Source: Candidatus Dormiibacterota bacterium
GTDB lineage: Bacteria; Chloroflexota; Dormibacteria; Aeolococcales; Aeolococcaceae
Reading direction: 5' to 3'
Length of the DNA: 64,000 nucleotides
NCBI GenBank assembly: GCA_963709585.1
Contig: CAVPXI010000004.1
Coordinates: 288,001 to 352,000 of the forward strand
The stretch's first letter is position 1, and the number at the start of each line of letters is the position of its first letter. Positions 33,482 through 37,036 of this stretch are shown here, piece by piece. Below the pieces are notes generated by a model. It made no database searches. It was given only the letters and a program-made list of their open reading frames with translations, and was not told the origin of the DNA. Made by a program: the position numbers and the translations under genes.

Positions 33482-35050
33482 ATGCACCGCCGGCTGGCGT
33501 GCCTGGCTGTGGCGCTGCTGGTCTCCGGCTGCGGCTTCAGCGGGCTCGGCTCACCTCCGAACTACGGCTACGTCGTGATCACCGCGGGCGGAGTTGGCCT
33601 CCGCTCCGGCTCCCAGGACGTGCCCCCCAACCTCAACCTCCGGCTCCACGCCACCGGCGCGGCTCTGCAGGCCTCGGACGTGACCGCGACCCTCGATGGG
33701 AACCAGCTCTCGCTCGCCACCCAGGATCAGGACCTGCTGGCGACGGTGAAGCCGCTGCCGCTCTCATCGAGCCACCACCTCTCGGTCGCGGTGGCGGGGA
33801 TGAGCACCCAGAACTTCGCGTTCACGGTCATCTCGCCGACCGCCGCGATGCTCGCCGCCCACGTCGATCCTGCGAGTGGGCTGGTCGTCGATGCCGTCTT
33901 CGACGATGCTCCCGACCAGGCCGCAGTGGCCGCCGCTCTTCCCGGCGGGACGCTGACCTGGGTCGACGGAACCCATGCTCGGATCACCTGGAGCGCCAAG
34001 CCGCCGGCATCGATCGCGCTCCCCGCCACCATCGCCACCGCCGGCGGTGCACACCTGGACCCGGGCATCAGCCTTTCGCTCGTCGGCATTGCTCGTCACA
34101 CCATCCGGCGGGTGACCGTGCCGCCGCCACCCCAGGTCGCGGGCATCCCGGTTGACGCGTTCGTGATCAACACCGGAGCGTCGAACTCGTCACTCGCCTT
34201 TCACCTCGGCGCGGTTGCGCAGGTGACCCCGACCGGTTGGCAGGCACAGGCGGACGGCTCGATCCTGGGCACTCCGGATCAGTCCGCGACCGGCCGTGCA
34301 GCTGTCGCGGGTCTGCCCATCTGGCCGTCGCTCGCCAACGACTTGACGAACCCGCCCGCCACCGACCAACTGCTCAACGATCCCAGCGCGACCAAGGTGC
34401 TCGTCAACGAGATGGTGGCCGCGATCCGCTACGACGGCTATCGCGGCATCAACCTCGACTTCGAGGGGATGCTCCCGACCGACAAGGCTCCGTTCACCGC
34501 GTTCGTGGAGCAGCTGGCGACTGCGCTCCATGCCCGAGGGGCCAAGCTGATCGTCGACGTGGTCCCCCACGACTTTGCCGGGGTCAATGCGTACTCCGCC
34601 GCATACGACATCGCCGCGATCGGCAAGGTGGCCGACTACGTGGATCTGATGGCCTACGACGAGCACGGCGATGGGGGAACGCCTGGGCCGGTGGCTGGTC
34701 TGGACTGGGACCGGGCGGTCCTGCAGGCGACCCTGCCGGATCTCAACCCCGCGCACGTCCTCCTCGGTGTTCCCCTCTACGGGCGCGCTTGGGGCAGCCT
34801 CGGCGGCGCGGCCGCATATTCGAACGTCATCTACAACGCGCTCTTGATACCCGGAGCTCGCGTCGACTACGACTTCAGCGCTCAGACCCCCTTCATCGTC
34901 TCCCCGGACGGCTCGCTCACCACCTACTTCGACGACCGGGACAGCCTGGCCCGCAAGGTCGCGCTGGTCCGGACCGACGGCCTCGCCGGGATCGCCGCCT
35001 GGCGGCTCGGTTTCGAGGACCCGGGCTTCTGGTCGCTCTTCCGCGCCTGA
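33482..35050 (+). CDS. Lipoprotein with GH18 (chitinase-like) domain
   Basis: Lipobox VSGC; GINLDFE, LMAYD, LGVPLYG, AWRLG. Confidence 0.88.
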   Translation: MHRRLACLAVALLVSGCGFSGLGSPPNYGYVVITAGGVGLRSGSQDVPPNLNLRLHATGAALQASDVTATLDGNQLSLATQDQDLLATVKPLPLSSSHHLSVAVAGMSTQNFAFTVISPTAAMLAAHVDPASGLVVDAVFDDAPDQAAVAAALPGGTLTWVDGTHARITWSAKPPASIALPATIATAGGAHLDPGISLSLVGIARHTIRRVTVPPPPQVAGIPVDAFVINTGASNSSLAFHLGAVAQVTPTGWQAQADGSILGTPDQSATGRAAVAGLPIWPSLANDLTNPPATDQLLNDPSATKVLVNEMVAAIRYDGYRGINLDFEGMLPTDKAPFTAFVEQLATALHARGAKLIVDVVPHDFAGVNAYSAAYDIAAIGKVADYVDLMAYDEHGDGGTPGPVAGLDWDRAVLQATLPDLNPAHVLLGVPLYGRAWGSLGGAAAYSNVIYNALLIPGARVDYDFSAQTPFIVSPDGSLTTYFDDRDSLARKVALVRTDGLAGIAAWRLGFEDPGFWSLFRA

Positions 35051-35076
35051 GCCGAGCTAGATCCCATAAGTTGTTG

Positions 35077-36279
35077 TCAAGCTAATCCGGCGCTGCCATG
35101 CGCCGGATCGAAGTCCTTGTCGCCGCGCCACACGCCCCAGACGATGGCGAGCGCCTTGCTCATGCAGTGACCAAGGGAGTTCATCGCTGACTTGCCCGCG
35201 GCCCGCTTGCGAGCGTAGTGGGCGCGGATGATCGGGTTGTGTTGCACGCCGACCACCGCCATCCGGTACGCCGCCGCACGCAGATACGAGTTGCCGGTCT
35301 TGGCCATGGTCCAGCTCGTCTCGGGGTTCGCACCCTTCTTCCCTGAACTCTGCTCCTTGGGATGCACGCCTGCGTAGGCGAGCAACTGGTCGACATCGCT
35401 GAAGCGCCAGATGTCGCCGATCTCGGCCATGAGTGTGGCCGCGGTGGACGGCCCGACACCGGGAATCGAGAGCAGCCGCTGCGACACCTCGCCGTCGAGC
35501 AGGGAGGCGACCCGGGTGTCCGCGCTGGCGATCTGCTGGTCGAGCAGGTCGTGCTGCGCAATCAGGAGGCGCATCTCGAACCCGACCTGCTGCGCGAGTT
35601 CCGGCGCAGCCACCGAGGTCTGAGCCAGCTGCTTGAGCTGGCCGGCCTTGAGCGGTCCGATCGCACGGCCACCACCGCCCGGACGCTTGAGCCGAGCCAG
35701 GCGGTCCTGGTGCATGCGCGCCACGGCCGCGGCGGTCGGCGCGTGGCGGAGCACCGCCAGGGCGCTCACGCAGGTCGGGTCGTCCCAGACCTCGCGCAGC
35801 TCAGGAAAGCCGATGTCCACCAACCGCTGGATGCGCTGGCAGACCTGGGCCTGCTCACGCACCAAACGCATCGCGAACCGCGCCGCCTCCTTGAGCTCGG
35901 CCCCCACCAGGGGCTCGCTGATCCGCGGCTGGTCGTGCGTTCCCAACGCCGCCAGTGTGCGCGCGTCGGCCGGGTCGCTCTTGCTCCGCTGCAGCCGGCT
36001 CTTGGCGAAGTACTTGGCCTGCAACGGGTTCACCACCGCCACCGGATACCCCTGGCGACGCAGGTGGCTGGCCAGGTTGAACCAGTAGTGGCCGCTCGAT
36101 TCCATCACCACCACCTCGATCGGCGCTTCCTGCTTCGTCATCCACGCGTCCAGTTCGCCGAAGCCCTTGCGCTTGGTGGTGATGGTGAGCACCTTCCGAT
36201 CCGCCTCGCGCTCACCCTGGCGACACACCGCCGCCGCGCACTTGTATGCCCCCACGTCGATCCCCACCGCCAGGCTCAT
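35077..36279 (-). CDS. IS110 transposase (DEDD recombinase)
   Basis: GIDVG, MESSG, KSDPADA (DEDD); SIPGVG, AEIGD..RF, QSSG catalytic Ser; AGGAGG RBS. Confidence 0.96.
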   Translation of the reverse strand: MSLAVGIDVGAYKCAAAVCRQGEREADRKVLTITTKRKGFGELDAWMTKQEAPIEVVVMESSGHYWFNLASHLRRQGYPVAVVNPLQAKYFAKSRLQRSKSDPADARTLAALGTHDQPRISEPLVGAELKEAARFAMRLVREQAQVCQRIQRLVDIGFPELREVWDDPTCVSALAVLRHAPTAAAVARMHQDRLARLKRPGGGGRAIGPLKAGQLKQLAQTSVAAPELAQQVGFEMRLLIAQHDLLDQQIASADTRVASLLDGEVSQRLLSIPGVGPSTAATLMAEIGDIWRFSDVDQLLAYAGVHPKEQSSGKKGANPETSWTMAKTGNSYLRAAAYRMAVVGVQHNPIIRAHYARKRAAGKSAMNSLGHCMSKALAIVWGVWRGDKDFDPAHGSAGLA

Positions 36280-36289
36280 ACGCACCTCC

Positions 36290-36498
36290 TGTGTCGGGTT
36301 GCGACCCCAGGGGTCCTCGCCTTGCTTCGTCGCCGCGTGGGCTGATGCTCCATCACCGGTCACCGCCGTCGGATCCCAATCACCGCTCGAAGACGAAGCA
36401 CGAGGGCCGGTCACTAGCTCCATCGGTCCCGTCGCCGGATAGCTATGCGCCGGTCTCCCCGTCGAGGTCAGATTCCCCGCGATTCTGACCCTGCCAGG
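36290..36498 (-). ncRNA. Putative IS110 bridge RNA
   Basis: 5' hairpin GGTCAGA/TCTGACC followed by two internal-loop hairpins whose loops match the target and donor junctions. Confidence 0.7.
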
Positions 36499-36505
36499 AG
36501 ATATA

Positions 36506-37036
36506 TCAGCTTTCGGAAGCGCCGGTCCCGAGATCGGGGAGGTTGAGGGTGTTGACCCAGTCGCGAATCTTGGCGAGCCGCTCCTCGCTCTCCGGATCCG
36601 TCTCGGTCAGGTCGCCGTCCTTGTCGGCCTCGGGGAGGACGCCGGCCTTGTCGAGCACCTCATCGGCGACGAAGATGCCCGCTCCGACCCGCACGGCGAC
36701 GGCGATGGCATCCGAAGGTCGGGAGTTGATCTCCAGGCGGCGTCCGTCGACCTGCGCGAGGATCCGTGCGTAGAAGACCTCGTTGCTCAGGGATGTCACC
36801 ACGATCCGCTCGACGGTGACCTCCACCGCGCTGAGCAGGTTGGCAAGCAGGTCGTGCGTGATCGGCCGCTCGGGGGTGATCCCGGTGATCTTCAGCGCGA
36901 TCGCGTTGGCCTCATTGATGCCGATCCAGATGGGCAGGTAGCGGTCGGCCGACTTTTCTTTGAGGATGACGACGTGCTGGCCGGTCGGCATGTGCACCCT
37001 GATGCTGTCGACGGTCATTTCCACCAGGTCGGCCAT
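36506..37036 (-). CDS. Bifunctional nuclease family protein (DUF151)
   Basis: LPIWIG..EA..I, RPITHDL, FYARI, SRPSDAIA. Confidence 0.9.
   Translation of the reverse strand: MADLVEMTVDSIRVHMPTGQHVVILKEKSADRYLPIWIGINEANAIALKITGITPERPITHDLLANLLSAVEVTVERIVVTSLSNEVFYARILAQVDGRRLEINSRPSDAIAVAVRVGAGIFVADEVLDKAGVLPEADKDGDLTETDPESEERLAKIRDWVNTLNLPDLGTGASES

Follow-up and report, generated by a model that had tools for sequence, protein, structure and literature searches.

What kind of mobile element lies between two convergent genes of an uncultured soil bacterium, where exactly does it end, and is its insertion site chosen by an RNA that the element itself encodes? The locus is part of a 64,000-nucleotide stretch of contig CAVPXI010000004.1 (called the window below, always at its full length) from a Dormibacterota bacterium, a member of a phylum known only from metagenomes. 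Our results argue for an intact insertion sequence of the IS110 group, which encodes a DEDD/serine recombinase and, in its left end (LE), a bridge RNA. We put the probability of this reading at about 0.88. The guide loops of the element and its homologues track the DNA on their own flanks beyond chance. The element is a clean, fresh example of a mechanism published in 2024; the mechanism itself is not new.

Boundaries of the element

The element extends from 36507 to 35061 on the minus strand (1,447 bp) and has a copy of the CT core on both flanks. We place the ends here because the three copies in the genome, the orthologous empty sites and the conserved termini of homologues agree. Over 1,451 bp, two of the three host copies show no difference, and the remaining one has two substitutions (R199C and E235A). 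Common to all three are the left border ..AGCT GATATAT CTCC... and the right border ...TGGGAT CT AGCT. Twenty-odd homologues (61–95% protein identity) from metagenome-assembled genomes (MAGs) of Dormibacterota also start with CT-GATATA and end with TATGGGNN-CT, beside flanks that are unrelated to each other; one distant homologous element starts with CT-GACATA instead. The same CT is present at both junctions of all three copies and a single CT at the empty site of copy 2, and there is no other duplication. Within the termini, TAT before GGGAT and ATA after GAT form a 3-bp inverted repeat, as described for IS110-group elements (PMC11208160, legend of Extended Data Fig. 10). The LE is a long non-coding region of 228 nt (36507–36280) upstream of the gene, and the right end (RE) is the 16 nt past the stop codon (35076–35061), an arrangement found in the IS110 group and reversed in IS1111. 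The two convergent genes on either side are a bifunctional-nuclease-domain gene and a GH18 gene.

The locus orthologous to that of the window copy is empty in all 11 same-genus genomes fetched (11/11) and reads GAAAGCT-AG-GCTCGGCTCA (GAAAGCT-AG-GCTCGG), with no GATATAT. We also compared four sequencing runs (X2, X3, X11 and X16), all of them as assembled contigs, which drop rare forms; X16 leaves part of the stretch without cover and is uninformative there. The same joined empty form is present in one contig each of X2 (soil DNA) and X11. For copy 2, the empty allele is found in genome G443, where the left flank, one CT and the right flank follow each other (GGATAG-CT-AGCTGTTC) and the flanks are 97–99% identical. 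The nearest empty alleles of the other two copies differ from the filled sites by one base of the right target (RT): an additional G at +3 in the case of the window copy, and G in place of A at +1 in that of copy 3. In copies 1 and 3 the occupied sites fit the right target guide (RTG) perfectly, and their nearest empty alleles are off by one base there. With a flank identity of 93%, we read these one-base differences as ordinary polymorphism.

A preliminary description of the locus, made from its letters alone, had set the ends at 36500 and 35059. The right end stands (35059 includes the core CT). The left end is off by 7 nt, since the other copies and the empty alleles place it away from 36500, at 36507. 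The ends of an IS110 element cannot be set from a single copy by means of a repeated dinucleotide, and annotation therefore needs empty sites. The shift of the boundary strengthens the main inference of RNA-guided insertion.

Target guides and target sites

In IS621, the left target guide (LTG) has the sense of the left target (LT) plus the core, and the RTG is the complement of the core plus the RT (PMC11208160). The loop strings GCAUAG-CU and GAGCU-AG of the window copy predict, by this rule, the target GCATAG-CT-AGCTC. With the corrected ends, the window copy sits in CGAAAG-CT-AGCTC and the other two copies in GGATAG-CT-AGCTG and TTATAG-CT-AGCTC. Over 11 specificity positions the window copy has 1 mismatch and the others have 1 and 0. 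The preferred target ..ATAG-CT-AGCTC of the preliminary description is thus what all three copies occupy with 0–1 mismatch each. Its suggestion that the window copy had been inserted at an imperfect site does not survive: with the true ends, a single mismatch is left.

The four motifs singled out there are indeed present on the minus strand: GCATAGCT at 36448–36441, GAGCTAG at 36420–36414, TGGGATC at 36378–36372 and GGAG at 36351–36348. The first two are the left and right target guides, and the proposed check, covariation of guide and flank, comes out in their favour. Our sample consists of 24 insertions of Dormibacterota homologues that fall into 13 loop-sequence (guide) classes. At 20/24 sites the RTG matches its own RT at 6 or more of 8 positions. 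When guide classes are permuted, the observed RT score over the 6 non-core nucleotides is 102 against a null of 65.1 ± 7.9, and none of 50,000 permutations is as good; for the 7 nucleotides of the LT the score is 76 against 56.9 ± 5.4 (32/50,000 as good). With one site per class, the numbers are 0/50,000 for the RT and 569/50,000 for the LT. Position windows chosen post hoc give 0/50,000 on both sides, with or without an unpublished genome.

The signal can be assigned to individual positions. At LT −2, −3 and −4, cognate guides match at rates of 0.91, 0.68 and 0.50 and non-cognate guides at 0.26, 0.19 and 0.25. At RT +3, +4 and +5, the cognate rates are 0.71, 0.96 and 0.79 and the non-cognate rates 0.21, 0.23 and 0.44. 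LT −1 (G) and RT +1 and +2 (AG) are nearly constant across classes. RT +6 shows no guide match in the position-wise comparison, a longer left guide (positions −5 to −10, registers −2 to +2) gives no signal, and the distal GC of GCATAGCT does not match the flanks. Judging from these 24 sites, natural specificity would amount to about 4 + 2 + 5 = 11 bp.

The 14-mer predicted by the guides is depleted rather than repeated in the genome, because it has 150 matches at up to 3 mismatches where the reversed control has 914; the best listed matches have 2 mismatches. One unoccupied site with 3 mismatches, CGATAGCTAGCTGC at G000:C14:54680-54693 (minus strand), retains ATAG-CT-AGCT, and ATAGCTAGCT is intact there. 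Similar to the target that copy 2 occupies, it is a candidate for a free target in the same genome.

Several homologues deviate in ways that deserve mention. L033 and L037, two independent insertions of one class, read ..GGGAT-CT-C-AGCCC.. where the guide predicts CT-AGCCC, with an extra base between core and RT, which is what tolerance of a 1-nt bulge would look like. On its left side, L033 has a further T in front of the core. L027 has intact bridge-RNA domains, but other sequence stands in place of the first ~40 nt of its LE, GATATA included, and the right flank matches the RTG at 2/8 positions; this is probably a rearranged copy. L017, L018 and L019, three insertions in two genomes, share their right flanks far past the target (CT-AATACATCCTC..) and part of their left flanks (..CCTCGTAT(A/G)TCG-CT). 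The target of this class may be a repeat or some other mobile element, and for that reason the three sites are not independent.

Donor guides and the predicted circle junction

The ends of the element imply a circle junction of the form ..TATGGGAT-CT-GATATAT... (TGGGAT-CT-GATATAT). As the preliminary description had proposed, TGGGATC is the left donor guide (LDG). In IS621, the LDG pairs only as far as the first core base (PMC11208158). Among homologues, the LDG covaries with the left donor (LD): GGGAUC, GGGACC and GGGUUC go with GGGAT, GGGAC and GGGTT, respectively, in 25/26 loci, and L033 has one LD mismatch.

The right donor guide (RDG) AUCAG, which would read the right donor (RD), is invariant beside the terminus CT-GAT, with the exception of L043, where the RDG is GUCAG and the terminus CT-GAC. 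Resting on conservation and a single compensatory event, the assignment is well motivated but thinly sampled. In all classes but one, LTG(−1) is G and the RDG is followed by C; in L043, LTG(−1) is C and the following base is G. This pattern, which depends on one change, fits the handshake model of IS621. The UG that follows the RTG does not agree with that model, as it cannot pair with the donor AT.

In L022 and L024 (L078 and L082 in genome G003), the last ~33 bp of the element are duplicated in tandem, so that GCGCCGGACCTGCTTGACCAGAACCTATGGGAT occurs twice. The duplication yields two predicted −35 boxes and two LD sites. L023, the third copy in that genome, is single.

Consensus fold of the bridge RNA

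The consensus fold of 12 non-redundant LEs has a target domain, a long covarying stem and a GCG/CGC stem that encloses the donor guides. The internal loop of the target-binding domain contains both target guides. One of the 12 aligned rows (L042) comes from a genome that is flagged as unpublished. Of the 334 cells of the structure that we chose, 96.1% pair, and 7 pairs are changed on both sides (20 cells). Covariation scores 0.208 compared to 0.110 for shuffled alignments, of which 0/500 reached the observed value; slid controls pair at 24–48%. All compensatory changes fall in the donor domain. Of the fold that the preliminary description had drawn, the 5' hairpin and the two stem-loop domains stand. 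The two internal loops are absent from the single-sequence minimum-free-energy (MFE) structure and are seen in the consensus of the 12 homologues only. Coordinates of all features are listed in Table 1.

Table 1. Features of the element and its flanks (window coordinates). The target-binding loop is abbreviated TBL; the other abbreviations are those of the text.
Feature	Position	Strand	Basis
IS110-family recombinase, 400 aa; D8, E60, D102, D105, S312-G313	35077..36279	-	Pfam, NCBIfam, PDB alignment
Shine-Dalgarno AGGAGG, 5 nt upstream of ATG	36285..36290	-	sequence, homologues
Left CT core copy	36508..36509	-	sequence, empty sites
Right CT core copy	35059..35060	-	copies, empty site
True left terminus GATATAT: RD GAT, then ATA (inverted-repeat partner of TAT 35068-35066)	36501..36507	-	homologue termini, empty sites
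Right terminus: LD TGGGAT	35061..35066	-	copies, homologue termini
LT positions -4..-1 of the window copy, AAAG; guide predicts AUAG, one mismatch at -3	36510..36513	-	
RT +1..+5, AGCTC, exact RTG match	35054..35058	-	
5' stem-loop GGUCAGA ... UCUGACC	36466..36490	-	hairpin at this place in 11/12 homologues
TBL domain: outer CCGG/CCGG 36453-36450/36410-36407, inner CGG..CCG 36437-36435/36426-36424	36407..36453	-	stems invariant, loop hypervariable, n=12
LTG, effective part AUAG + CU	36441..36446	-	guide/flank comparison
RTG GAGCUAG, reverse complement of CT-AGCUC	36414..36420	-	guide/flank comparison
Donor-binding loop domain: long outer stem 36404-36393/36330-36316 and GCG/CGC stem	36316..36404	-	compensatory changes
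LDG UGGGAUC = LD TGGGAT + first core base; next base C36371 mismatches core T	36372..36378	-	
Putative RDG AUCAG (36346-36342), reverse complement of CT-GAT; CC 36341-36340 at handshake-guide position	36340..36346	-	
TTGACA, predicted -35 box that shares bases with the stop codon; 14 nt to the core; would face LE only in the circle	35075..35080	-	

Two homologues have unusual left ends. L025:519-700 (JAFALX010000238.1; 75% protein identity) has normal termini and a normal donor domain, and its LE runs from GATATAAGCC straight into GGGCGCCGGCCCTCG, without the 5' hairpin and without the whole target-binding loop. Such a copy is either dead or would depend on a target loop provided in trans. In L036:1200-1500 (CAWHLW010000003.1), the LE is recognisable, most C residues are replaced (G/A/T-rich GAGGGTGATTGGGATGAGGAGGAGG..) and there are no recognisable termini. 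The loss of C may reflect strand-biased hypermutation or be an assembly artefact.

Recombinase, promoter and proposed mechanism

The protein has the two Pfam domains PF01548 (E = 3.9e-26) and PF02371 (E = 3e-23) and scores 205.4 bits against the NCBIfam model NF033542 'IS110 family RNA-guided transposase', which has a cut-off of 140. Its closest solved structures in the PDB are ISCro4 (E = 2.7e-26) and IS621 (E = 4.2e-24). D8, E60, D102, D105 and S312-G313 align opposite D11, E60, D102, D105 and S241-G242 of IS621, and in IS621 these residues make up the composite active site (PMC11208158). With its open frame, these domains and the consensus fold of the RNA, the preliminary description of an intact IS110-type element with a two-loop RNA encoded in the LE holds. 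Residues 214–364 of the recombinase, in the region of the Tnp domain, also have a sub-threshold match to NF052498 'TIGR-Tas system RNA-guided endonuclease' (E = 8.2e-10; 39 bits, with the cut-off at 100).

The RE carries TTGAC exactly 14 nt from the core in 15/15 loci, and the TTGACA of the window copy is a perfect −35 sequence. A circle would set TTGACA opposite TG-A-TATATC, in which the −10-like box overlaps the terminus GATATAT (36501–36507). The pair of boxes at the RE-LE junction is at most promoter-like, and the promoter rules of the phylum may differ. For IS621, it has been reported that a promoter is reconstituted across the circle junction (PMC11208160). In the integrated element, we found no sigma-70-like promoter or terminator pattern. 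One contig from an RNA library spans 36233–36510 of a relative and continues into flanking DNA, and it is uninformative about a discrete RNA.

Except for the junction promoter, which is no more than promoter-like, every feature that defines an IS110-group bridge system and that can be read from sequence is found here. The mechanism that we propose would begin with excision as a circle, which would join TTGACA of the RE to GATATAT of the LE and create a promoter that drives the RNA. The first loop would then read the target: AUAG-CU would pair with the bottom strand on the left side of the core, and GAGCU-AG, on the right side, with the top strand. The second loop would read the circle junction, where UGGGAUC could pair with TGGGAT-C and AUCAG with CT-GAT. 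A tetramer of the recombinase would finally exchange strands at CT. Transcription, circle formation and catalysis we infer only, by homology to IS621 and ISCro4.

Alternative explanations

Could the anatomy of the preliminary description nevertheless be right? The element would then run from 36500 to 35059, its empty site would be GATATAT-CT-AGCTC (and the empty allele ..GATATATCTAGCTC..), its circle junction ATGGGAT-CT-CC would be read by GGAG, and the left guide would match poorly. There is indeed a CT at 36500–36499 besides the one at 35060–35059, and GGAG does complement CTCC. However, the genome contains no exact match to that empty site (1 match at 3 mismatches vs 4 for the reversed control). 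In all homologues GATATAT accompanies the element beside unrelated flanks, and it is missing from the 11/11 orthologous empty sites, from the copy 2 site in G443 and from the metagenome contigs with empty sites. As GATATAT (36507–36501) belongs to the element, the junction ATGGGAT-CT-CC is wrong. GGAG as the right donor guide fares no better: it varies among homologues (GGGG, GGCG, GGTG, CGGA), CTCC is not conserved there, and no terminus matches it, whereas AUCAG complements CT-GAT. We see hardly any chance that this anatomy is correct. One could also argue that the target is chosen by the protein or by DNA structure, for example the CTAG palindrome, and that the likeness of loop and flank is a by-product. 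Such a choice would agree with the near constancy of CT, the preceding G and the following AG across classes, and with the lack of covariation in the target-loop stems. It does not explain why LT −2 to −4 and RT +3 to +5 follow the loop of their own class (cognate rates of 0.50–0.96 vs non-cognate rates of 0.19–0.44) and why 0/50,000 permutations do as well; moreover, the guides of the IS621 RNA have been seen in the structure pairing to both DNAs (PMC11208158). We regard this explanation as very improbable.

A third alternative is that the element is a relic that died or fell silent recently, in which case the matches of guide and flank record past RNA-guided insertions and the copies here are immobile now. 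The contigs of the four runs hold neither a circle junction nor a discrete RNA, the integrated form has no detected promoter and one copy carries two amino-acid changes; these points speak for a relic. Against this, two copies are identical over their whole length and the third differs at 2 bases; the frame is open, and nothing is lost from the five catalytic residues, the two guide loops or the two termini; and the insertions are younger than the split from G443, where two of three sites are empty and no copy is found at E ≤ 1e-20. A relic therefore seems improbable to us.

Several observations weigh against our own reading, that of an intact element with a bridge RNA. Neither a circle junction nor an RNA 5' or 3' end was found in the contigs of runs X2, X3, X11 and X16. 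The −10-like box is imperfect, as TATATC fits at 4/6 positions, has no T at position 6 and follows an 18-nt spacer. The right side is missed at 4/24 sites (L027 with 2/8, L029 with 1/7, L033 and L037 with 4/8 each). On the left, positions −5 to −7 of the LTG vary by class and match the flanks no better than non-cognate guides do (registers −2 to +2). The exact pre-insertion sequence is confirmed for copy 2 only. The stems of the target domain are invariant in the 12 sequences, so covariation is neutral for them. The single-sequence MFE has a z-score of −1.64, 13/200 shuffles fold as well or better, and the LTG pairs with the RTG in that structure. Finally, a search of Rfam with 34500–37000 (E ≤ 10) gave only two chance-level matches, to unrelated families (E = 7.6 and 9), yet this carries no weight because Rfam 15 may hold no bridge-RNA model.

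Comparison with known systems

One of the closest known systems is the bridge recombinase and bridge RNA of IS621 from Escherichia coli (Durrant et al. 2024, PMC11208160; Hiraizumi et al. 2024, PMC11208158; PDB 8wt6). Both elements have the same two Pfam domains and the DEDD and Ser-Gly catalytic residues. Both have the RNA in a long LE and a short RE, and in both the order is 5' stem-loop, target loop, donor loop. The guides are laid out alike: the LTG has the sense of LT and core, the RTG is the complement of core and RT, and the LDG ends after the first core base. The core is CT in both, a 3-bp inverted repeat flanks the donor (TAT..ATA here, ATA..TAT in IS621) and a −35 box in the RE, predicted in our element, meets the LE only in the circle.

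The similarity to the IS621 recombinase is distant (E = 4.2e-24) and confined to the two domains, and the protein is longer (400 aa vs 326 aa), with a longer middle region. The natural RTG comprises 7 nt and the effective LTG 6 nt, compared to 4 nt and 9 nt in IS621. The RDG AUCAG is contiguous; the split 9-on-7 pairing described for IS621 is not recognised here. A handshake of the type seen in the IS621 TBL is not evident either, as UG after the RTG cannot pair with the donor AT. The host is also different, being an uncultured Dormibacterota bacterium.

ISCro4 (PDB 9t56) is the best match among solved structures (E = 2.7e-26), and both domains align; this likeness comes from the alignment alone. 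Elements of the IS1111 group, or seekRNA elements, belong to the same recombinase family and also choose targets through an RNA (PMC11208160). IS1111 elements have the RNA in a long RE and carry subterminal inverted repeats of 7–17 bp; here, the RNA lies upstream of the gene and the repeat has 3 bp. We assign the element to the IS110 group because the RNA is upstream of the gene, the RE ends 16 nt past the stop codon and the repeat is 3 bp long.

A full-text search for papers linking 'Dormibacter' with 'IS110', which did not extend to other names of the phylum, found none. What the locus adds is a well-delimited natural family of bridge recombinases from a phylum for which metagenomes are the only source. 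In this family, at least 13 target loops, each beside matching DNA, are combined with a single conserved scaffold and donor loop, which amounts to a natural reprogramming series. The RTG is longer (7 nt) and the effective LTG shorter (6 nt) than in IS621, which may interest those who engineer such systems. Our understanding of the mechanism is unchanged by the finding.

Age and distribution

G443 is the closest genome, with flanks that are 93–99% identical. Two of the three sites are empty in it, and it has no copy of the element at E ≤ 1e-20. Hence, the insertions are recent, younger than the split from G443. Within the genus, the element is present in 11/42 genomes, the window's own included. 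In the phylum, a protein match at E ≤ 1e-60 occurs in 3/401 sampled genomes, again counting its own, and two loci were gained in this way.

Possible preference for stop codons

The near-constant CT-AG puts the crossover inside CTAG, a sequence with few occurrences in this genome (1,213 in 3.5 Mb, GC content 66.6%). We asked how often a gene is likely to end exactly at the TAG of such a site. In this GC-rich DNA, the frames at the junctions could not be told apart by plain open-frame length, and a criterion on GC at third codon positions (GC3) was added. Our crude test thus accepts, on either strand, an open frame of at least 60 codons that has the highest GC3, of at least 0.75. By this measure, the target TAG is the exact end of a likely gene in 11/18 CTAG sites of insertions, compared to 269/1,213 CTAG sites genome-wide; the sites come from several MAGs, the background from one genome, and the counts are given without a formal test.

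The enrichment at gene ends is a lead only. It could mean that this clade of bridge RNAs is tuned to CTAG at the ends of genes, with the crossover inside a TAG stop on either strand, an idea that we find rather doubtful. The GA of the element would then rebuild the TGA of the left gene, and the duplicated CT would keep the TAG of the convergent right gene. If this is true, insertion leaves both coding sequences untouched, and the element has a built-in safe-harbour rule. At the window copy, the bifunctional-nuclease gene, which ends with TAG in relatives (GAA AGC TAG), now ends with TGA (GAA AGC TGA), and the length of the protein is unchanged. The TGA stop of this upstream gene is built from T36508 of the core and G36507 and A36506 of the element.

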